A stretch of 32,000 nucleotides of DNA from Candidatus Electronema halotolerans (GTDB lineage: Bacteria; Desulfobacterota; Desulfobulbia; Desulfobulbales; Desulfobulbaceae), in NCBI GenBank assembly GCA_942493095.1, contig OW818675.1, positions 1,560,001-1,592,000 of the forward strand. Reading direction: 5' to 3'. Of the stretch, positions 8,620 to 31,697 are shown in pieces (position 1 is the stretch's first letter; each line of letters begins with the position of its first letter). Position numbers and translations under genes: made by a program. The notes beneath the pieces are model-generated. The model searched no databases. It was not told where the DNA came from and saw nothing but the letters and a program-made list of their open reading frames with translations.

Positions 8620-8810
8620 AAAAAAACCCGCGCTGCCGTGTCAACAGAATGATTAAACCTATAGTAAAATAGGTGGGCGCGCCATGCTGGCATCGGGAAA
8701 TCCGCAAGGTTTTCCGTCAGACCAGCAGATAGGAGCTGCCCTATCAATGAGAGTTGGCTCAATACTCCGTTGATCACCAACAGCGCAGGAAAGGCTGCTG
8801 TCTCTTTCTT
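8620..8810 (-). ncRNA. ssrS: Candidate 6S RNA (about 190 nt); ends approximate
   Basis: It lies in a 650-nt non-coding gap downstream of the zapB-like gene. Hand folding gives a closing stem 8781-8789/8627-8635 (9 bp, one G-U) followed directly by a U7 run. Further helices are 8769-8773/8641-8645 and 8722-8727/8685-8690, with an apical hairpin at 8696-8715. A large asymmetric central bubble lies between them. A possible TTGTCT-N18-TATTTT promoter lies just upstream. Confidence 0.35.
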
Positions 8811-8938
8811 CCTGTTTTATAAAATAAAAACGCAAAAAAAGCAAAGACAATTTTTTCGTTTTCCGATCTCAGGACAGCGGCGGAGAGGGCGACGGGCCAT
8901 GAAATCAGCTAATTGCCCGGCAAAATTTTTTCCTCAGC

Positions 8939-9226
8939 TCAGTCCTTCTTGTCCGGCTCCCCCTTGCCGAGCTTGGGACCGGCAGGCTTGGGCGCAAGCT
9001 CTGTTTCCCAGTCCTCAATCCGGCCCAGCAGACCGGAAACCCGGTTGGACACTTCTGACCGCTGCTTGTGCAGCTCATCAATTTCCAGCTTGAGCAGCTC
9101 GCACTCCTCCTCCCGGTCGCGGAGCTTTTTCTCAAAAGCCTGAAGCTTGCTCTTCTGCTCCCTGAAACGGCTGATCAGGGTTTCGACAAGCTGTTCAAGA
9201 CGGACTATTTCCTCATTGTTCTGCAT
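8939..9226 (-). CDS. zapB: ZapB-like coiled-coil cell-division protein
   Basis: 95 aa, entirely heptad coiled coil, with LLGRIEDW resembling the LLGRMEEV end of E. coli ZapB. AGGAGG Shine-Dalgarno sequence upstream. Confidence 0.5.
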   Translation of the reverse strand: MQNNEEIVRLEQLVETLISRFREQKSKLQAFEKKLRDREEECELLKLEIDELHKQRSEVSNRVSGLLGRIEDWETELAPKPAGPKLGKGEPDKKD

Positions 9227-9340
9227 GACGCGCTCCTCCTTGCAAGGCTCTGCGAGACAATTCGTGCTGCACGTTCAGACTGCGGAACAGAAAGTACTTA
9301 CCAGTTTTGGCCCTTGGCGGCAATCTAAAAATTCCAGCGG

Positions 9341-9823
9341 TCAGCGAAAACACTGCCAGCGCACCGGGCGGCCCTCTTGATACGGCAGGCAGCCGTAAAA
9401 AGGCCGGGGATCGTCATCAAAGACCAAGGGCAGAAAATAGCGGTCGCCTTCCCACAAGGGCAGATGATCTAGGGCGGCCAAGGGATGCCAAGCAAGCTCG
9501 CCTTCGGGGCAACGTTTTTTGGGCTGGCCGACAAAAGCGGTGATCAGAAAAATGAAGCCGAGCCAGTCTTCTCCGTCGGCTCCGAAGCCGGGCCAATTCA
9601 CCGTGCCGCGCAGATGCAGCTCCTGGCAGAGAATGCCTGCCTCCTCCTCAATTTCCCGCACCATGCAGGTATGCACATCCTCGTCAGGCCGCATCTTGCC
9701 GCCCAAGCCGTTGTATTTGCCGAAATGCTGATCATCCTGCCGGGCATTGCGGCGCAGGAGCAAAACCTGGCTGCGGTCCGGGGAAAGGACATAACCAAGG
9801 GTGCCGATGATGGGTTTGTACAC
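9341..9823 (-). CDS. NUDIX hydrolase (MutT-like)
   Basis: Nudix box GGKMRPDEDVHTCMVREIEEEAGI (GX5EX7REUXEEXGU). Confidence 0.85.
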   Translation of the reverse strand: MYKPIIGTLGYVLSPDRSQVLLLRRNARQDDQHFGKYNGLGGKMRPDEDVHTCMVREIEEEAGILCQELHLRGTVNWPGFGADGEDWLGFIFLITAFVGQPKKRCPEGELAWHPLAALDHLPLWEGDRYFLPLVFDDDPRPFYGCLPYQEGRPVRWQCFR

Positions 9824-9943
9824 GATCTGTTTTGGCAGAGGAGAGCTTTTTACCTGTTTTTTGTCAAAAGTATGCTACAATTGACCACAACAGCCTTGGA
9901 CAGCGACGCAAGGGGCAGCTCTTTTTCCCCGCATCATAATGCC

Positions 9944-11356
9944 ATGCAGTCAGCCGTGAAACATATTCTTTTCGCCCTCTTTTTTGTTGTTCTGGCCGTC
10001 TGGCCGGTCTCAGCCCAGTTCACCAGCGCAGGCTGGGTGACTGTTCCGGCTGACACCGGCTTTCCGATGTATCCGATCATCATGCCAAACATCCGTTTCT
10101 GGGAGAAAATCTACGGCACCTACACAGAGAATCAAGGGGTGCTGCACGACCGGGACAACTTGGATGTGATTTACGGCACGGTCAATTTTGTCAGCAAGCA
10201 TACTCCAGGCGCAGCGAAAATCAATGAAAAACTGATCGACTTCTCCCGCCAGAACTATAAAAACATGCTCATCAAATTTGCGACAGGCGGCAAGGCGGAG
10301 AACAAGGAGGAGCAGCGGATTTATCTGCTCTTTGCCCGGAGAACGCCGGAGGTCTTTCGGGAAGCCAGTGAGAACATCCGCCTCCAGACCGGCCTCAAGC
10401 GGCATTTCCGGGACGGCGTGATCCGCTCCGGCGCGTACATGCCCATGATCAAACGGGTGCTGCGCCAGCAGGGCCTGCCCGAAGAATTGGCCTATCTGCC
10501 CCATGTTGAATCCTCCTTCAATCCCAAGGCCCATTCCAAGGCCGGAGCTGCCGGGCTGTGGCAGTTCACCCGCAGCACAGGCCGGGACTTTATGACCATC
10601 AATGAGCTGGTTGACGAACGCTATGATCCGCACATCGCCACTGAGGCGGCAGCCCGTTTTTTAAAAGGAAACCACCGCAGTCTCGGCTCCTGGCCGCTGG
10701 CCCTGACAGCCTACAATCACGGGCGGGCCGGGATGTTGCGGGCCAAAGAGCAGTGGGGTTCCTATCCAGCTGTTTTCGCCCGGCATAGCAGTGCAACATT
10801 CGGTTTTGCCTCGAAAAATTTTTATTCTGAATTTGTCGCCGCCTACCGGGCAGCCAAACGCCTAGAGGCTGACCACAGCGTAATCCGCGACCGGCCTTGG
10901 GCCAGCGCGACCCTCCATCTCAAAGGCTATGCCGCTGTCAAGGACCTGCTCCGCTATTTCGGCGTTTCTGCTGACGAATTCCGCCGCCTCAATCCTGCCC
11001 TGCGCCAGCCTGTGCTGGATGGAGAGAAATACATTCCCAAAGGCGTGAAACTGCATCTGCCTGCGACCCATTTCATCCGTGAGCGCATCCGCACACTGCC
11101 GGACAGACTCCTTCACAGCAGTCAGTTAGCTGACAGCAGGCCGGAGACAGGAAGCCGGAGAACTTATACGGTTAAGCGGGGTGACACCGCCTTGGGCATT
11201 GCCAGACGCTTTGGCATCACGCTGGACACCCTGCGACGGCTCAACCGATTGAACAAAAAGGCGGATGTGCAGATCGGCCAGCGGCTGACCGTTCCCGGCA
11301 GCAGCGGCAGTTCCAGCCGCCGCATGATCAAGAGCAAAGCAAAACGAAGACCCTGA
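9944..11356 (+). CDS. Membrane-bound lytic murein transglycosylase (MltD-like) with C-terminal LysM
   Basis: Track ORF 9485..11356 trimmed to MQSAVKHILFALFFVVLAVWPVSAQ (signal peptide). SLT catalytic motif PHVESSFNPKAHSKAGAAGLWQF. LysM motif YTVKRGDTALGIARRFGITLDTLRRLN. The upstream 153 codons overlap the NUDIX gene in antisense. Confidence 0.85.
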   Translation: MQSAVKHILFALFFVVLAVWPVSAQFTSAGWVTVPADTGFPMYPIIMPNIRFWEKIYGTYTENQGVLHDRDNLDVIYGTVNFVSKHTPGAAKINEKLIDFSRQNYKNMLIKFATGGKAENKEEQRIYLLFARRTPEVFREASENIRLQTGLKRHFRDGVIRSGAYMPMIKRVLRQQGLPEELAYLPHVESSFNPKAHSKAGAAGLWQFTRSTGRDFMTINELVDERYDPHIATEAAARFLKGNHRSLGSWPLALTAYNHGRAGMLRAKEQWGSYPAVFARHSSATFGFASKNFYSEFVAAYRAAKRLEADHSVIRDRPWASATLHLKGYAAVKDLLRYFGVSADEFRRLNPALRQPVLDGEKYIPKGVKLHLPATHFIRERIRTLPDRLLHSSQLADSRPETGSRRTYTVKRGDTALGIARRFGITLDTLRRLNRLNKKADVQIGQRLTVPGSSGSSSRRMIKSKAKRRP

Positions 11357-14217: not shown

Positions 14218-17200
14218 GTGAAGAAAACAATCCTGCTGTCTCTTGCCGCGATGTTGTGCTGTTTCCTGCTGCCCTCAGCATGGGCTGACAAGACGGACAG
14301 CTCCCTGCTGCGCATGTTCATGATGATACGAACAGCTTCCTCGCCCAAGGTGTCTTTGAGCGCAGAACCGGCTGCGATCAAATTGGGTGGAACAGCAACG
14401 CTGACGTGGATCAGCAAGAACGCGGACACGGTCAGCATTGACAACGGCATTGGCGCAGTCGATCTGAACGGCTCTCAGTCTGTGGCTCCGACGACGACCA
14501 CAACTTACACCATCACTGCTGCCGGAGCAAAAGGCACAGTTACGGACAGTGTCACAGTCACGGTGCTTCAGCCGCCTGTGGTTTCTCTGGCTGCTGATCC
14601 GACTTCCATCATAGAAGGGAGCAGCTCAACCCTGACGTGGACCAGCACCAATGCGGATTCCGTCAGCATAGACAACAATATCGGCACGGTCGCTGCAAGC
14701 GGCACAAGAAGCGTTTCTCCTTCAGCAGACACGACCTACAAAATTACCGCAACCGGCCCCGGCGGCACGGCCTCGGATACTGCTGCAATTACAGTTTCGC
14801 CTGCTGATGCCCCTGCAATTACGATTTCCGCAGCATCGGAGAGCATTGCCCTTGGTGCTTCCACGGAGCTGTCTTGGCAGAGCCAAAACGTTGACAATAT
14901 CAGTATTGACAACGGGATTGGCGAAGTTGCGGCAAATGGTTCTCAGAGCATCACTCCCCAGCATACCACAACTTATACGATTACCGGTTCAGGAGACAAA
15001 GGCACGGTCAGCGCGCAGGTGACGGTACAGGTGACAGGCAATCCGGCAGCACCGCCGGAAGGCTCGTTTGGTGAGCAATATGAAGACCTTATGCCGCCGG
15101 ATGCGACGATTGATGAATACGATGCCAAGCGGTTTTCGCTGATCACCGGCATGGTGCATGATCTGCAAGATGCGCCGTTAGAGGATGTGCGCGTCACGGT
15201 GCATGATCATCCTGAATACGGCACTGTAAAGACCGCTGCGGACGGCAGGTTCACCCTTCCGGCAGAAGGCGGCGGCACTATGACCATTGCCTATAAACGG
15301 GCCGGGTATATCACCGCGCATCGTCAGGTCTATGTGCCGTGGAATGACATTGCGGTTGCGGAAACGGTGCAGATGCTGGTTGAAGATTCAGCGGCCACGC
15401 AAGTCACTTTTGACGGCAATCCTGCAACCATAGCCACGCATGTAAATACGCCGGTTACGGACGAGTTCGGCAGCCGCTCTGCGACCATCGTTTTTCAGGG
15501 CGACAACATGGCCCATCTGGTTGATGAGCAGGGCAACATAATTCAGGACTTGCCGAACATTACGGCCAGAGCCACAGAGTTCAAGACGCAGGAGTCCATG
15601 CCTGCGGTTTTGCCGCCAAATTCCGCCTATACCTACTGCACGGAACTGTCCGTGGATGGCGCGGCGCGAGTGCGCTTTGACAAGCCGGTCACTGTCTGGG
15701 TGGACAACTTCCTCAAATTTGATGTCGGCGAAAAAGTGCCGGTTGGCTATTACAACCGGGATCGCGGAGTTTGGGTGCCGTCTGAGAACGGCCTTGTGGT
15801 CAAGCTCTTGGATACGGACAGCGACGGCGTTGCGGATGCCTTGGATTCGGATGGCGACGGCCAGCCGAATGATCTGAATAATAACGGTTCTTTTGCTGAT
15901 GAAGTGATTGGCTTGGAAGATGCGAGCCGGTATGTGCCAGGAAAGGAATTTTGGCGGGTAACTGTCACCCATTTCACGCCGTGGGACTGCAACTGGCCGT
16001 ATGGCCCGCCCGCTGATGCGACAGGGCCGAATCCTAATGGTGTTCCTGATGCGGAAGAACCTATAAATGATGCTGCGGAAGAACCTATAAATGATGCCAA
16101 TAACGGACTGAAAAAGGATGACACGGACTGCAACGGCTCTTACATCAAAAAACGCGGGCGGATTGTTCATGAAGATATTCCGATTCCCGGAACGGGCATG
16201 ACCCTGCATTACGCCTCTAATCGGGTGGAGGGCTACAAGCAGGTCATCACGGTTCCGGCCAGCGGCGACACGGTGCCGGACAGTCTGAAGAGCATCATTG
16301 TTGAGGTGAAACTTGCCGGGCGCACGCTGACGCAGACTTTAGAACCGCAGCCGAATAAGCAGGCGCAATTTGTCTGGGATGGTTTGGATTATTTGGGCCG
16401 CGAAGCAGGAACTGTGCAAGCTGATGTGGCTGTGGGTTTTGTCTATGATGCGGTGTATTACACAGCCAGAAATGATGTTGCCAATGCCTTTGCTCAGGCT
16501 GGAAGCGAGGTGAGCGGTATTCGGGCGCGGCAGGAGGTTACTTCGTGGCAGCGTTTTCAGCTTCAAATTAGCGCAGGCAAAGCTGCGGGCAACATTGCTG
16601 AAGGCTGGAGCCTGTCTGATCATCATGTCCTTGGAAGAGGTGCTGCATACCTTAACAAAGGGTATGGCTCCTTTTTGGAAAATAACAACACGCAAATCAT
16701 AACAACCGTGGCTGGTAACGGCTTCTATGGCTCCAGCGGTGACGACGGTCCGGCAACCGAGGCCAAGCTGAATAATCCAAGCGGAGTGGCGACAGATAAA
16801 GCGGGAAATATATTTATTGCCGATAGAGGAAACCATCGCATCCGCAAGGTGGATACAAACGGCATTATAACAACAGTGGCAGGCACCGGCTCTGAAGGCT
16901 ACAACGGCGACAACATTCCAGCTATTGATGCCAAACTTGCTGAACCAAGAGATGTCGTGGTCGATCAGCTCGGCAATATTTTCATTGCCGAATACGATAA
17001 CCATCGCATCCGCAAGGTGGATACAAACGGTATTATCACCACAGTGGCAGGCAACGGTGCTACAGGTAATGGCGGTGATGGCGGTCGAGCTATTGATGCC
17101 GAACTTCAGAATCCTTATCAATTGGCAGTGGATGAAAGCGGCAATATCTTTATTGGGCACAATACCAGCCCGATTAGCAGGTATATTCGCAAAGTGGATA

Positions 17201-20200
17201 CAAACGGCATCATTACCACTATAACAAAACCCTACAAAATAGGAGGATTAGCAGTCGATCAGGCTGGCAATCTTCTCTTTGCCAATTCAATGTTCGCTCG
17301 TATCAGTAAGATTGATTCCAGCACCGGCATCATGACTACGGTGGCCGGAAATGGCTCTGGGGACTACAGCGGCGATGGAGGCCCGGCAACCGAGGCCAGT
17401 CTTCATAATGCAGTGGATATTACTTTAGACCAAGCTGGAAACCTCTTTATTGCCGACTATGACAACAAACGTATCCGCAAGGTTGCGAACGGGATTATCA
17501 GCACAGTGGCTGGAAATGGGTCATCAGGCTCTGAAGGCGACGGCGGCCCGGCTGCTGCCGCCAGTCTTTTTGAGCCTAACAGGGTGGCAGTGGATCATGA
17601 AGGCAATATTTTCATTGCTGAGTATGGTCACCACCGCATCCGCAAAGTTGCCGCTGCATCCGCTGTGTTCAGGTCGCATCTAATGGAAGCAGGCGACATC
17701 CCCTTTGCCGACTCCAACGGCCTTGGCTACATCATGTCCGCTGCTGGTCTCCATAAAAAGACCATTGATTTAGACAGCGGCCTTGTTGTGCAGAACTTCG
17801 CATATGATAGCGACAACAACCTGATTTCCATCACCGACCAGTTCGGCAATGTCACGGCGATTGCGCGGGATGCAAACGGCACACCGACTGCCATTGTCTC
17901 GCCGGACGGCCTGCGCACCGAGCTGCACATCAACGCGGACAAGCAGCTTGCCAAGATCGTTTACCCGGACAGCAGCGCCTACAATTTCACCTACAGCCCG
18001 GACAGCCTGATGACGGTTGAGACGGAGCCGAACGGCAACCGTTTTGAACATCATTTTGATGCCAACGGCAAAATCGCTGAGGTGCTTGACGAGGAAGGCG
18101 GCCAGTGGCAATACTCGCGGCAGCGGCTGGCGAACGGCGAGGTGCGGATTGAATCAGTCACGGCTGAGGGCAACCGCACGGTAAATCTGGATACCAACGC
18201 TTCCACTGGGGCCTTTTCCACTGTCACCATTGACCCCAGCGGCAACGAAAGCAGCTTCAGCCGTTCTGCTGACGGCCTCAGTGAAACACGGGAACTTTCC
18301 TGCGGCATGACAAGCTGGACAGACTACGGCTTGGATGCGGAATACAAGTACAAGGTCGCGCAGAGCACAGGCACGCAGTCGCCTGCCGGACTGACCAAAG
18401 TCGCCCAAATAGATAAAACCTATCAGGATACGAATACAGACGAGATACCTGACCTGATCAAGGAAACGCTCTCCCGCGACGGCAGACTGACAACCCTTGT
18501 TCATAACACCCTGATCGGGGAAAAGACTGTCACTACGCCGAAAGGCAGGAAAGTGACGGCCAAGTATGATCCGGCGACCCTGCTCACCAAGAGCGTGGAA
18601 ATTCCCGGCCTTTCTCCGACCAACTATGCCTACGACAGCAAGGGCCGTTTGACCTCGGTCACGACGGATGAGCGGACAGCGGCGTTCAGCTATAACGCGC
18701 AGGGTTTTCTTGCCTCGCAGACTGACCCGGAAGGGCGCACCACCTCCTACAGCCATGATGCGGTGGGCAGAGTGACCAAGATAACCCGGCCTGATGCCAG
18801 CACGGTTCAGTTCAGTTATGACAGCAACGGCAATATGACCGCGCTGACCAATCCATCAGCGACAAATCATCTGTTCGACTACAACAAGGTCAATAAGCAG
18901 AACGCCTACAATACACCGATCAGCGGCTCATACAGCTACGTTTATGACAAGGACAGGCGGCTGAAGCGAACGGATTTCCCGTCAGGCGCGCAAATCAGCA
19001 ATATCTACACCGACAATCTGCTGACCCAGACGCAGACTCCTGAAGGCAATATTGATTATACGTACCTTTGCAGCTCCAAGGTTGGTTCGATCAGCAAAGG
19101 CGGTGAAACTATTGCCTACAACTATGACGGCAGTTTGCTCACCTCGGAAAGCAAGAGCGGCACAGTCAATCAGACGCTGACGTTCTCGTATAACAACGAC
19201 TTCGATCTGTCCGCAATCACGTATGCCGGAAGTACGGAAAATCTCAGCTATGATGACGACGGCCTGCTGATCAGTTCTGGTGCTTATGCCATAAGCAGAA
19301 ATGCGGCCAATGGTCTGCCGGAGCAGGTCAGCGGCAATGCTCTGAGCCGCAGCCGGACCTTTAACGGCTACGGCGAACTGACTGCGGAAAACTCGATGGT
19401 CAATACGCAGCCTGTCAACGGCTGGTCTGTGACTCGGAATAAGAACGGCAGAATACTGAGCAAAACCGAGAATGTGAACGGCAGCACGGTTGATTATGCG
19501 TATTCATACGACAACATGGGCAGACTGCTGACTGTGAAAAAAGGCGGCACGCTTGTGGAAGAGTATCAGTACGGCTTGAACGGCAGCCGCACGCATGAAA
19601 TGAACAGCCTCAAAGGTGTATCGAGCCGGGATTATAGCTATTCGGAGGAAGATCATCTGCTCTCCGCAGGCGATGTAAGCTATGCGTTCAATGCGGACGG
19701 CTTCCTGACCAGCAAGACCCAAGGTGCTGAGATAACCGCCTACAATTATTCCTCTCGCGGCGAGCTGCTGCAAGTCGCTCTGCCGGACGGAAAGAGCATT
19801 GAATACCTCCACGACCCGCTGGGCCGCAGGATTGCCAAGAAGGTCAACGGCACGATTGTGGAAAAATACCTCTGGCTTGGCCTGACCAAGCTCATGGCAA
19901 TCTATGACGGCAGCGACAACCTGCTGATGCGCTTTGAATATGCGGACGGCAGAATGCCCGCAGCCATGACCGCCAGCGGCGCGACCTATTATCTCAGCTA
20001 TGATCAGGTCGGCTCGCTGCGCACGGTTGCCGACGCGACCGGCAGCGTGGTCAAGGAAGTCAGCTATGATTCCTTTGGCACGATTCTTTCTGACAGCAAT
20101 TCCGCCTTGGCCGTGCCTTTCGGCTTTGCAGGCGGCCTGCATGATCGGGATACCGGATTGGTCAAATTCGGCTTCCGGGATTACGCCCCGGCAATTGGCC

Positions 20201-26588: not shown

Positions 26589-27337
26589 AACGGCTTTTTG
26601 TTCTCCTGCTGACGCTCTGCTGTGTGACTGTCAGTGCCGCCTCTGCCCTGCAAGACACGGCAGGAGCACTTTTTAGGCAGGCCAACGATGCCTATCTCAA
26701 AGGCCGCTACCGGCAGGCTGCCAACCTGTATCTGCAAGTGGCGCATAATGCGGGGGTTTCCGCCGAGCTGCTCGGCAGCCTGGCAGACAGCTATGCGGCT
26801 GCCGGACAGACCGGGCTGGCTGTGCTCAACTATGAGCGCGCCCTGCGGTTGGCTCCGAGCAACGCTGTTTTGCGGGCGGATTTGCAGCAGCTCCGCAAGG
26901 AGACAGGACTGTTCCAAAAGCAGACTTGGCCGGAACGGCTGGCCGGACTGCTGGGCGCAGACCAGTGGCTGCTGCTCTCCGGCACAGCCTTTGTCCTCCT
27001 CTCTCTGACCGTGCTGGCTGTCGGCTTGTTAGGCCGAAAACGCTTTCCGCAGGCCGGACGGCTCAGTCTTCTTTTCCTCATCATCACCCTGCTGCCGCTG
27101 CCCCCAGCCCTGTTCCGTTATCAGGCGTGGCAGGACGGCGTGGTCATCAGCAGCAAAGTCAAGCTGCTCATCTCGCCCTTTGCTGGTGCTGAAGCAGTCA
27201 GCCCGCTCAAGGAAGGCAGCATTGTCCGGCCCTTGGATAAAGAATACGGTTCGTATGCCTTAGTCCGCGCTGCCAGCGGCCAGCAAGGCTGGTTAGACAA
27301 AAGCAGTTTTCAGCAGATTGCGGCCCTGCCGCTCTGA
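26585..27337 (+). CDS. BatE-like TPR plus bacterial SH3 domain protein
   Basis: Track ORF 26399.. trimmed to MKRLFVLLLTLCCVTVSAASA (signal peptide); its ATG forms an ATGA overlap with the batD stop. It has TPR motifs, two TM segments and an SH3-like end (GSIVRPLDKEYGSYALVRAASGQQGWL). Confidence 0.65.
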   Translation: MKRLFVLLLTLCCVTVSAASALQDTAGALFRQANDAYLKGRYRQAANLYLQVAHNAGVSAELLGSLADSYAAAGQTGLAVLNYERALRLAPSNAVLRADLQQLRKETGLFQKQTWPERLAGLLGADQWLLLSGTAFVLLSLTVLAVGLLGRKRFPQAGRLSLLFLIITLLPLPPALFRYQAWQDGVVISSKVKLLISPFAGAEAVSPLKEGSIVRPLDKEYGSYALVRAASGQQGWLDKSSFQQIAALPL

Positions 27338-29965: not shown

Positions 29966-30008
29966 GGAGTGAAGAAGGGTGAAGTTTGAAGGGTGAATGG
30001 TGAAATTC
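29966..30008 (+). repeat. Heptanucleotide tandem array A (GGTGAAG-type on plus strand)
   Basis: TGAA recurs at 29970, 29980, 29987, 29994 and 30001 (spacings 10, 7, 7, 7): TGAAGAAGGG TGAAGTT TGAAGGG TGAATGG TGAAATT. Confidence 0.85.
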
Positions 30009-30012
30009 AGTG

Positions 30013-30363
30013 TCATTTTGCTTTCAGCTTTTTGCATATTGCGGTAAGGATGGCGGTCAGTTCATTGCATTCCTGTTTTAATCCGTCGAGTTGGGTGGAT
30101 TCTATCAGTTCAGCTTCTTCAATCAGTTCGAGCCAGTACAGGCTTTCGTGCGCTTCTTTCACAGCAATGCTGTATTTGGTCAGAAAGTCGGCCTTGCTTT
30201 GCGCGCCTTCTCCTTCGGCGATATTTGCCCCGATTGATGTTCCAGAGCGAAGCAGTTGTCTGCCAAGTGTTTTGTTGATTCCCGGTTTTTGATCAAGGAC
30301 TTGACAGAGTTTTACAATTCGCAGGGCAAATTTCTTTGATCGGTCTGGTAAATCACGTTTCAT
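30013..30363 (-). CDS. Four-helix-bundle protein (23S rRNA intervening-sequence protein / Avd family)
   Basis: 116 aa with the family core LGRQLLRSGTSIGANIAEGEGAQSKADFLTKYSIAVKEAHESLYWLELI. Confidence 0.85.
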   Translation of the reverse strand: MKRDLPDRSKKFALRIVKLCQVLDQKPGINKTLGRQLLRSGTSIGANIAEGEGAQSKADFLTKYSIAVKEAHESLYWLELIEEAELIESTQLDGLKQECNELTAILTAICKKLKAK

Positions 30364-30380
30364 AATTTCATCATTTATTC

Positions 30381-30432
30381 TTTACCCTTCACACTTTACC
30401 CTTCACCTTTCAAACTTCAACCTTCACCTTTT
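30381..30432 (+). repeat. Heptanucleotide tandem array B (TTCACCC-type on plus strand)
   Basis: Seven exact-period heptads start at 30381: TTTACCC TTCACAC TTTACCC TTCACCT TTCAAAC TTCAACC TTCACCT. The hsdS stop codon (30417-30419) lies inside the array. Confidence 0.9.
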
Positions 30433-31697
30433 GGAATGCGCAGTTCGCCGGAGAGGAGTTTTGGGAGCAGGGTGTCGCGGAGGGTTGCAAGTGTTTTGTT
30501 TGAGAAGCAATTTAATGAAATTTTATCAAAGTAACTTGTCCCAATCTGCAAAAAACAATTCATAATTTTTTGTGAAGGCAGCAATATACTTGCCTCATTG
30601 ACATTTCCTTTATTGATATGCTGTTGCGCTCCGCCAGTTTGAGATGAAATAATTCCCTCTATATTGTTTGTTATCCAAAGATAGACGAACTCATTTGGAA
30701 GTTCTTCTTTTCCAAGAATTCCAACAACTGATTGATTAGCACAACATTCAATTTCGTTCAGACTAACCTGACCGAGAGTTGCTCCTGTTATGGCCAGAAG
30801 AGTTGTTCTTTTTGGTAAAAGTTTTGTCGCAGATTTTCGGACTGCTTCCTCAGTAATCAATTCTGAAGGTTCAATAACTCTAAATTCATTAACCTTACCT
30901 GAATTTATCCAAGGAATGCTTCCATTATTCCAAAACTCCTTATTTTTACGTGCAGGAGTTCCACCAAGGATAGTTTCTAATTCATCACCAATTTTTGTAA
31001 TCTCCCACCCCTTGGGAACCCACCCCATTTCATCGCTGTAAACAAACTCATCAGGGAAAAGAGCGCGGATTTCAGCAGGAAGCGGCTTGCGCTTGTCGCC
31101 CAATGCAGCACGAGCAGCAGCACGTCCAGCAATCTCCTCCGGCACTTCCTTGCCGCTGGCAATGGCATTGTCAATCACCGGGTCAAAATCAACAAACCAG
31201 CTTTTGAACAATGCCTGCGCCATCGCCTCCAAGGTTTCATTCATCCGCCGGTTTAACTCGATTCGGTCATCAAGAGAACCAAGAATATGGGCAATGGCTT
31301 TTTGTTCTGAGAGTGGAGGAACTTTAATTTCTATCGGATGGATAAAGTTTCGATTCAAAGACGGTTGAGCACTGCCAGAATTAAATCTGGTAAAATCTAT
31401 TGATTTTAAAAGATAATATGCAAACTTCGGATAATTACCATGAAACTCGTTCACGTAGAGGGCAGTATTCAACGGCCAATAATCAATTGGCGAGTATGAA
31501 ACCACCCCAATAGATCCACCACTGCGACCAATTGTTACACCTGGTCCAGTGGCCTTGCTTTCGTTATGCCATCCTGTAATCCCAAAGGAGCCTAATATTG
31601 GTACCTTTCCTATAGTTCTTTTGCCTTCAGGTAAATCATGTCCTCTTTGTAAGGTCACAAATTCACCAAGCGTTTTGTCCTTCCACTCATTCCCCAT
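30417..31697 (-). CDS. hsdS: Type I restriction-modification specificity subunit HsdS (two TRDs), with no hsdM or hsdR in the window
   Basis: Central conserved region PPLSEQKAIAHILGSLDDRIELNRRMNETLEAMAQALFKSWFVDF and a C-terminal repeat of it (LATLRDTLLPKLLSGELRI). Two variable TRDs. GGAGG Shine-Dalgarno sequence upstream. Confidence 0.9.
   Translation of the reverse strand: MGNEWKDKTLGEFVTLQRGHDLPEGKRTIGKVPILGSFGITGWHNESKATGPGVTIGRSGGSIGVVSYSPIDYWPLNTALYVNEFHGNYPKFAYYLLKSIDFTRFNSGSAQPSLNRNFIHPIEIKVPPLSEQKAIAHILGSLDDRIELNRRMNETLEAMAQALFKSWFVDFDPVIDNAIASGKEVPEEIAGRAAARAALGDKRKPLPAEIRALFPDEFVYSDEMGWVPKGWEITKIGDELETILGGTPARKNKEFWNNGSIPWINSGKVNEFRVIEPSELITEEAVRKSATKLLPKRTTLLAITGATLGQVSLNEIECCANQSVVGILGKEELPNEFVYLWITNNIEGIISSQTGGAQQHINKGNVNEASILLPSQKIMNCFLQIGTSYFDKISLNCFSNKTLATLRDTLLPKLLSGELRIPKGEG

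Follow-up and report, generated by a model that had tools for sequence, protein, structure and literature searches.

The wiring of animal nervous systems depends on teneurins as essential receptors, and there is evolutionary interest in the bacterial ancestors of these proteins. For the YD repeats of choanoflagellate teneurins, the nearest counterparts were found in Syntrophobacter and Desulfococcus (Tucker et al. 2012, PMC3278476), and a bacterial teneurin-like protein with Ig-like N-terminal domains has also been described (Jackson et al. 2018/2019; PMC5851990, PMC6425310), the bacterial protein cited in the 2019 paper being from Bacillus (PMC6425310). Bacterial teneurin-like proteins (TLPs) have by now been catalogued as a class, solved by cryo-EM and found to cage toxins. 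Here we analyse a stretch of 32,000 nucleotides from the cable bacterium Candidatus Electronema halotolerans (contig OW818675.1, positions 1,560,001 to 1,592,000; the window below, in whose numbering coordinates are given unless a related locus is named), where a gene at 14218..20727 on the + strand very probably encodes such a protein.

The type example of the class is the TLP of Bacillus inaquosorum (BiTLP), whose cryo-EM structures are deposited as 'Teneurin-like protein' under PDB IDs 9pt5 and 9ifo (Raoelijaona et al., Nat Commun 2026, PMC13018210). The same work defines TLPs by N-terminal adhesion (Ig-like) domains, a transthyretin-like (TTR) domain, an insert termed 'TIP', an FN-plug, an NHL propeller, a YD shell and a tip of ~15 kDa, and finds TTR together with the TIP insert between TTR and FN-plug in 96% of them (PMC13018210). 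The proteins bear Sec/SPI or SPII signals (for signal peptidase I or II) and undergo autoproteolysis at two sites, G723|S724 in the FN-plug loop and the R2103/D2116/D2140 centre of the RHS core in BiTLP numbering, after which the tip is cleaved off yet caged within the shell (PMC13018210). An immunity gene lies directly downstream in almost all TLPs, the class occurs in six phyla, Thermodesulfobacteriota included, and the delivery mechanism is unknown, since no delivery machinery is evident (PMC13018210).

The gene in the window is an uninterrupted open reading frame (ORF) with a GTG start and GAGGA 5 nt upstream, and we assign its 2169-aa product with considerable confidence to the bacterial TLPs, as a single-chain polymorphic toxin of the RHS/YD superfamily. 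When PDB sequences were searched with phmmer, BiTLP was matched over query aa 63-2029 with E = 6.9e-297 (9pt5_A) and E = 5.6e-296 (9ifo_A), teneurins 2, 3 and 4 with E ~1e-90 and type VI secretion system (T6SS) Rhs proteins with ~1e-40, while TcB/TcC did not occur among the 60 PDB matches listed. The protein is far closer to teneurins (E ~1e-90) and to BiTLP (~1e-296) than to T6SS Rhs effectors or TcB/TcC. A first-pass annotation, made from the letters of the window, had read it as a Sec-exported teneurin-like RHS protein, and profile hidden Markov models (HMMs), structure prediction and homology support this, with the signal peptide judged by eye. The domain order that it proposed, TTR followed by NHL, YD shell and tip, is recovered by Pfam (TTR_TEN1-4, TEN_NHL, TEN_YD-shell), by NCBIfam (Rhs_assc_core) and by AlphaFold2 (AF2). 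Its sense of novelty was exaggerated: the architecture, Sec/SPI or SPII signals, Ig-like N-termini, polymorphic tips and missing delivery machinery had all been published. The class was described and solved structurally between 2018 and 2026, and the window protein adds another member to it.

The family to which the protein belongs is large. A word-index search at E <= 1e-10 returned at least 956 related protein clusters; each of the best 120 carries TEN_NHL and TEN_YD-shell, and all but one of them TTR_TEN. The closest matches listed come from Ca. Electronema halotolerans (84% identity) and Ca. Electrothrix species. Among species-representative genomes we collected 268 related stretches, corresponding to at least 268 genomic loci, the closest of them mostly from Desulfobacterota and the remoter ones from Gammaproteobacteria, Myxococcota, Nitrospirota, Planctomycetota, Chloroflexota and others. 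This is evidence that the TLP family in Desulfobacterota far exceeds the 139 genomes reported.

The N-terminal part of the protein follows the TLP plan closely. A putative Sec signal peptide of SPI type (aa 1-23, 14218..14286, +) was read from the sequence by eye with the -3/-1 rule; it consists of MKK, a 17-residue hydrophobic core and AWA|DK, in the usual n-h-c pattern and with no lipobox, and the N-terminus is kept in the Electronema homologue at locus L001. For aa 40-835, AF2 was run on an alignment of 75 sequences, 74 homologues and the window segment itself. The resulting model has a mean pLDDT (predicted local distance difference test) of 82.8, and Foldseek matches it best in the PDB to teneurins of fly, mouse, human and chicken (E = 5e-13 to 4e-11). 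The model confirms three tandem Ig-like repeats as beta-sandwiches of pLDDT >90 (aa 44-117, 121-194 and 200-273; 14347..15036, +). Their sole Pfam signal is a sub-threshold match to Ig_ADGRF3 (E = 1.6e-5); an Ig-like repeat is present in the consensus of 85 homologues, and the repeats presumably form an adhesion or stalk module. They are followed by a teneurin-type TTR (transthyretin/carboxypeptidase-regulatory-like) domain at aa 301-386 (15118..15375, +), matched by Pfam PF25020 (TTR_TEN1-4, E = 2e-19) and PF13620 and modelled as such by AF2.

Between the TTR domain and the propeller the first-pass annotation had placed a region of roughly 400 aa, which we can now resolve into a beta-rich insert, a disordered loop and an FN-plug. 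The insert (aa ~394-596; 15397..16005, +) matches no Pfam model, is beta-rich with high pLDDT in the AF2 model and is highly conserved in the 85 homologues; its continuous phmmer alignment to residues ~480-700 of BiTLP (9pt5) suggests that it is the equivalent of the bacterial TIP domain. Inside it lies the TSP3-like calcium motif that had been noticed at the outset, a DxDxDG-type element DTDSDGVADALDSDGDGQPNDLNNNG (aa 532-557, nt 15811-15888) whose residues D532, D540 and D543 are invariant in the 85 homologues. The AF2 model is disordered from aa 614 to 647, and just upstream of the G640|S641 site discussed below we also note a tandem duplication, EEPINDA-A-EEPINDA (16054-16098, aa 613-627). 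The FN-plug (aa ~650-785; 16165..16572, +) is an AF2 beta-sandwich that aligns continuously with the FN-plug of BiTLP; the Pfam model PF24329 (FN-plug_TEN1-4) matches it below threshold (E = 0.007, 17 bits vs a cut-off of 27.8), and a match to the same model is recorded for many homologues.

The remainder of the scaffold is recognised by profiles directly. The NHL beta-propeller (aa ~826-1150; 16693..17667, +) scores against TEN_NHL (PF25021, E = 1.6e-35) and NHL (PF01436, E = 6.5e-23), and six blades of the form 'IITTVAG...RIRKV' can be read in the translation, in agreement with the six originally counted. The YD/RHS-repeat shell (aa 1171-2000; 17728..20217, +) matches TEN_YD-shell (PF25023, E = 2.1e-42) over positions 20-866 of the 909 in the profile, and RHS_repeat with E = 1.6e-36; the phmmer alignment to 9pt5 reaches 506.8 bits over aa 1037-2029. 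The shell ends in an RHS-associated core at aa 1950-2028 (20065..20301, +; NCBIfam TIGR03696, Rhs_assc_core, E = 3.7e-18).

Both centres of self-cleavage are conserved, the cleavage itself being assumed by analogy with the published work (PMC13018210). Alignment to 9pt5 places a predicted N-terminal autoproteolysis site at G640|S641, in the loop 'DCNG|SYI' (16135..16140, +), where S641 coincides with S724 of BiTLP (G640|S641 thus standing for G723|S724). Of 85 homologues, whose alignment serves as our measure of residue conservation, 82 have Ser at this position; C638 stands near the predicted cut like C719 of BiTLP, which pairs there with C2216. R1987, D2000 and D2024, the residues of the aspartyl autoprotease, hardly vary among the homologues and are spaced 13 and 24 residues apart, exactly like R2103/D2116/D2140 in BiTLP. 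The C-terminal cut is predicted to fall after 'DSWGL' (L2028). Here the cleavage motif reads PVGLVD-S-WGL, with Asp2024 followed by Ser where Pro is usual (PxxxxDPxGL); position 2025 is Pro in 68 of the 85 homologues and Ser in seven, the window protein among them. We also considered a DPVGL six residues upstream as the self-cleavage motif and rejected it, as it is the conserved DPVN element.

Beyond the core the protein is variable, as had been anticipated. The C-terminal domain (CTD, aa 2029-2169; 20302..20727, +) has 141 aa, a mass of 16.0 kDa and six Cys. Similarity to all 80 of the related loci that we compared is lost at aa ~2024-2037, with few extending to aa 2053-2090, so that the tip must be regarded as polymorphic, and close relatives bear unrelated tips of 85-150 aa. 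The tip matches no Pfam or NCBIfam model, and a word-index search with the tip alone gave no match. However, the tip of one TLP homologue, P0004, is 40% identical to it, and a profile of these two tips, run in an exhaustive HMMER search against 1.84 billion representatives, uncovered a family of 250 representative clusters at E <= 1e-3, or 193 at E <= 1e-10. The domain spans ~110 aa, is nearly always found at the extreme C-terminus, and has the consensus ..CP..PP..DP.W..Y.G....FHCGY.GYLE.R.PTP..P..ECFYD..G.LVD..H.Y.GCRGTPDQY...D...H...DSGGI; the invariant or near-invariant residues include, in CTD numbering, F27, H28, C29, E52, D56, H66, H86, D90, G92 and G93. The window tip has Pro in place of the near-invariant first Cys, and a Cys-containing insertion.

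The company that this domain keeps says more about its nature. Of 71 carriers that were scanned, 12 have eCIS_core/DUF4157 (extracellular contractile injection system, eCIS), six RHS and two TEN_YD-shell, and PAAR, DUF4280 and PG_binding_1 are also seen; the domain likewise occurs on DUF6531-Rhs proteins. Toxin modules are usually borne by proteins of the eCIS_core/DUF4157, RHS, TEN_YD-shell, PAAR and DUF4280 kinds, and this range of carriers is the signature of a mobile toxin module; the tip is a putative toxin, a member of an unnamed Cys/His-rich toxin-domain family. AF2 models it with a pLDDT of 92.8. The best Foldseek neighbour of the region encoded at 20302-20640 is the AMOP domain of human isthmin-1 (ISM1; 9c6t_B, E = 0.2, probability 0.87, 69 columns), and Pfam AMOP is grazed by one of the 71 family members (E = 0.039). 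Kinship with AMOP was pursued as a lead and found unsupported, the clean domain profile missing 9c6t in the PDB sequences even at E <= 10.

Three Rhs-type carriers of the tip (loci L083, L084 and L086) have a tightly, translationally coupled small ORF downstream of the toxin gene; two of these ORFs overlap it, by 10 and 4 bp, and the third begins after a gap of 27 nt. These ORFs (L083 8260-8619; L084 8434-8763; L086 2241-2588) encode proteins of 119, 109 and 115 aa with 3-4 predicted transmembrane helices, which share the motifs F[LF]F.xSxVxP and GWxx[YF]G...TGG and are weakly but detectably related. They are likely candidates for the cognate immunity family of the tip. In L083 there is in addition a downstream orphan Rhs-tip cassette (8921-9397) with a partner ORF of its own (9407-9859).

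Taken together with what is known of BiTLP, these features suggest how the protein most likely works. The Sec pathway would export the precursor, and signal peptidase I would cut after AWA23. The YD repeats would close as a shell around the 16-kDa CTD, with the FN-plug sealing the N-terminal mouth and the NHL propeller lying to one side, as homology to BiTLP implies. Two autoproteolytic cuts, one before Ser641 in the FN-plug loop and one after L2028 by the Arg1987/Asp2000/Asp2024 centre, would leave the toxin free but caged. The three Ig-like repeats, the TTR domain and the calcium-binding insert could then display the particle on the cell surface or offer it to a target, where a trigger would release the toxin to act in the envelope of the target cell (periplasm or membrane). 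Action in the envelope is suggested by the conserved cysteines of the tip and by the polytopic-membrane nature of the candidate immunity protein in other carriers.

Several observations weigh against this account. The signal peptide is called by eye only, the canonical DPxGL is replaced by DSWGL, and Foldseek finds nothing in the PDB that resembles the modelled tip at E <= 0.001. No T6SS, Tc or two-partner secretion gene was found among the 21 larger neighbouring ORFs of the 32-kb window, as the first-pass annotation had also stated, and around 80 related TLP loci there is no conserved accessory or export gene; recurrent there are only TLP shadows or fragments, generic histidine kinases and RAYT-like genes. 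The crossing of the outer membrane and delivery were called unexplained at the outset, and the literature likewise treats them as an open question (PMC13018210). Of the features that define TLPs, the window lacks one, an adjacent immunity gene. The 166 bp between the TLP stop and the next gene hold no suitable immunity-like ORF, and no ORF of the window scores better than E = 2 against an HMM built from the three candidate immunity proteins. The slot where most TLP loci reportedly carry the immunity gene is occupied by a REP-associated tyrosine transposase (RAYT; 20893..21600, +; NCBIfam NF047646, 83.1 bits vs a cut-off of 80, and Pfam Y1_Tnp), flanked by palindromes of the repetitive extragenic palindromic (REP) type that a repeat search revealed. 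On its left, 76 nt past the TLP stop, lies a perfect 52-bp palindrome (20803..20854), which is a possible hairpin terminator, and on its right a second copy (21574..21623); the two copies read CAAAAGGGGACAGATTTATTTTTTTG and its complement.

The small membrane ORF is also missing at the other large Sec-type carriers of the tip that were inspected (P0004/L081, P0126/L082 and P0209/L088), and no coupled downstream ORF is found at the closest cable-bacterial TLP loci L001, L002 and L013, which have other tips. When 38 complete related loci were screened crudely for ORFs, roughly half showed a tightly coupled one downstream.

That neither the window nor these three closest cable-bacterial loci have a cognate immunity gene alongside would suit a protein that serves mainly in adhesion or recognition between cells, like animal teneurins, for example within or between the filaments of cable bacteria, with a tip that is vestigial or a signal. 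The adhesin-like N-terminus with its Ig repeats and the multicellular host agree with this, and the literature leaves a role of TLPs in cell communication open and notes their enrichment in socially complex bacteria (PMC13018210). However, both autoproteolysis centres are kept, whereas animal teneurins have lost the C-terminal one (PMC13018210), and the tip is a conserved module common to T6SS and eCIS cargo proteins, with invariant His, Cys, Glu and Asp residues typical of an enzyme; moreover it is swapped between close relatives, as happens in toxin systems. We consider a purely adhesive role unlikely. The missing immunity gene could instead mark a decaying or disarmed copy, non-functional after its immunity gene was lost to the RAYT/REP insertion and its cleavage motif mutated. 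The RAYT and two REP palindromes do sit exactly at the expected immunity-gene position, the cleavage motif has changed from Pro to Ser, and the tip has Pro at the position of its family's near-invariant first Cys. Yet the 6.5-kb ORF has suffered no frameshift or stop, its ribosome-binding site and putative signal peptide are intact, scaffold and tip have kept every catalytic and invariant residue, and Ser at the motif position recurs in seven of 85 intact homologues, all of which makes decay very improbable.

As to delivery, one might suppose that the protein is a T6SS-delivered Rhs effector, or a component like the BC part of a Tc toxin, and that its partners are encoded elsewhere in the genome. 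Those systems do have an RHS core and a YD shell as well, and only 32 kb of the genome are visible here. However, the N-terminus has a predicted Sec signal in place of PAAR, DUF6531, VgrG or SpvB/TcB; neither Pfam nor NCBIfam finds PAAR, VgrG or DUF6531 there, in line with the non-T6SS N-terminus claimed before. The arrangement of FN-plug and NHL is specific to teneurins and TLPs, T6SS Rhs and TcB/TcC proteins resemble it in the shell and core alone, with a similarity that falls short by ~50 or more orders of magnitude, and T6SS or TcA genes are neither present in the window nor conserved near the 80 related loci. We regard delivery by either system as extremely improbable and retain the caged, Sec-exported polymorphic toxin as the best account of the locus.

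A bolder extension of that account, doubtful at present though with some chance of being right, is that the tip represents a new enzymatic toxin fold, acting in the envelope and neutralised by a small polytopic membrane immunity protein, whose gene is systematically missing in large Sec-exported carriers, the window TLP among them. If so, kin would not be the target of such TLPs, which might serve to attack other species or grazers or have a non-lethal role in the shared periplasm of the filament, and the weak AMOP echo would hint at a second transfer from a bacterial toxin to an animal adhesion domain.

The transposase and its repeats have relatives elsewhere in the data. The REP repeat of the window is also found in L081 and L030, from other Desulfobacterota, and RAYT-like Y1 transposase ORFs lie a few kb from the TLP, mostly downstream, in seven of 81 loci (L003, L019, L020, L033, L034, L038 and the window). 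Remnants of a RAYT follow two other carriers of the window's tip, L081 (~10386-10700) and L086 (2578-2874). The second REP copy overlaps the 3' end of the RAYT and also the listed TTG start of gpsA, and thus the true start of gpsA is probably further on, near 21656. A separate 39-bp block, AGCTCGGTAGGTTGGGGATGAAGAACGACCCCCGATAAT, occurs 34-68 nt past the TLP stop in three Electronema-type loci (window 20761-20799, L001 14575-14613 and L013 3841-3868) that differ in tip and flanking genes, and L001 and L013 have ~90 bp more in common. The block could be one more short repeat element, or the gene unit may have a conserved 3' end here.

The remaining genes of the window have little to do with the TLP. 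The TLP gene is flanked by housekeeping genes. Upstream lie genes for RNase Y, TyrRS, an SLT-LysM transglycosylase, MoaE, BrkB and TatD, and downstream those for GpsA, a Bat-like VWA/TPR cluster and an epimerase. As none of these adjoins a TLP in other cable-bacterial loci, the TLP gene behaves as an accessory gene. Scans of the window for sigma-70 promoters and terminators gave counts near those of shuffled sequence. Between the RNase Y and SLT-LysM genes there is a 6S (SsrS) RNA gene (8621-8794, - strand), full-length by Rfam RF00013 at 56 bits vs a gathering score of 46.4. The Bat-like cluster (22732-27337), which comes after gpsA and is unrelated to the TLP, consists of a VWA/TPR protein, BatD and a TPR protein. 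At the window edge, a stretch of low GC content (0.40 over 30001-31000) has genes for HsdS, a type I restriction-modification specificity subunit, and a TIGR02436 four-helix-bundle protein (30013-31697, - strand), probably a mobile defence islet.

The locus adds a well-preserved Gram-negative TLP from a multicellular cable bacterium to the class. New here are the unnamed tip family common to TLP, T6SS and eCIS platforms, the candidate membrane immunity partner that is missing in the window, and the DSWGL motif. The lack of the apparent immunity partner in all four large carriers of Sec type that were examined offers a handle on the toxin's target and on the question of delivery.

Comparison with the known systems that share parts of this architecture places the protein among them. 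Gram-positive Sec-dependent YD toxins of the WapA type resemble it in YD repeats, a polymorphic C-terminus and signal-peptide export, predicted for the window protein, but are anchored to the cell wall and lack the teneurin scaffold of TTR, FN-plug and NHL. The TcB-TcC cocoon (PDB IDs: 4o9x; 6h6e) is likewise a closed YD cocoon with a beta-propeller, from which a toxin is released by autoproteolysis. However, the window TLP is a single gene, its propeller is of NHL type and folded to the side, and its plug would be an FN domain rather than a propeller; sequence similarity is weak, and no SpvB or TcA match occurs in the window. T6SS Rhs effectors (for instance 8h8a, 7q97, 8qjc and Tse15) likewise have a YD shell, an RHS-core aspartyl protease, an encapsulated polymorphic toxin and double autoproteolysis, and some DUF6531-Rhs and PAAR proteins bear a tip of the same family. 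The difference lies at the N-terminus, where the window protein has no PAAR, DUF6531 or VgrG-binding part and has instead a predicted Sec signal, an FN-plug and an NHL propeller, similarity being limited to shell and core.

Metazoan teneurins (chicken Ten2, PDB ID: 6fb3; human Ten4, PDB ID: 7bam) share the superfold of TTR, FN-plug, NHL and YD shell, with phmmer E ~1e-90 and, for the N-terminal part, Foldseek E ~1e-11 to 1e-13. In contrast to them, the window protein has no type II transmembrane segment, intracellular domain, EGF repeats or Cys-rich region by Pfam, possesses the TIP insert and keeps the autoproteolytic centre. Its tip, probably caged, differs from the external ABD and Tox-GHH of teneurins, neither of which is matched by Pfam in the window protein, and belongs to an unrelated family. 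BiTLP is the closest of all. The host here is Gram-negative (Desulfobulbaceae), the putative signal is of SPI type with no lipobox or cell-wall anchor, the tip comes from another family, DSWGL stands for DPxGL, and a RAYT/REP unit takes the place of the adjacent immunity gene. Otherwise the two proteins, alignable over aa 63-2029 of the window protein, agree in the absence of dedicated delivery genes, in the Ser cleavage site and the Arg/Asp/Asp centre with its identical spacing, and in the order of their modules from the Ig-like domains to the polymorphic tip, and probably also in the Sec signal.

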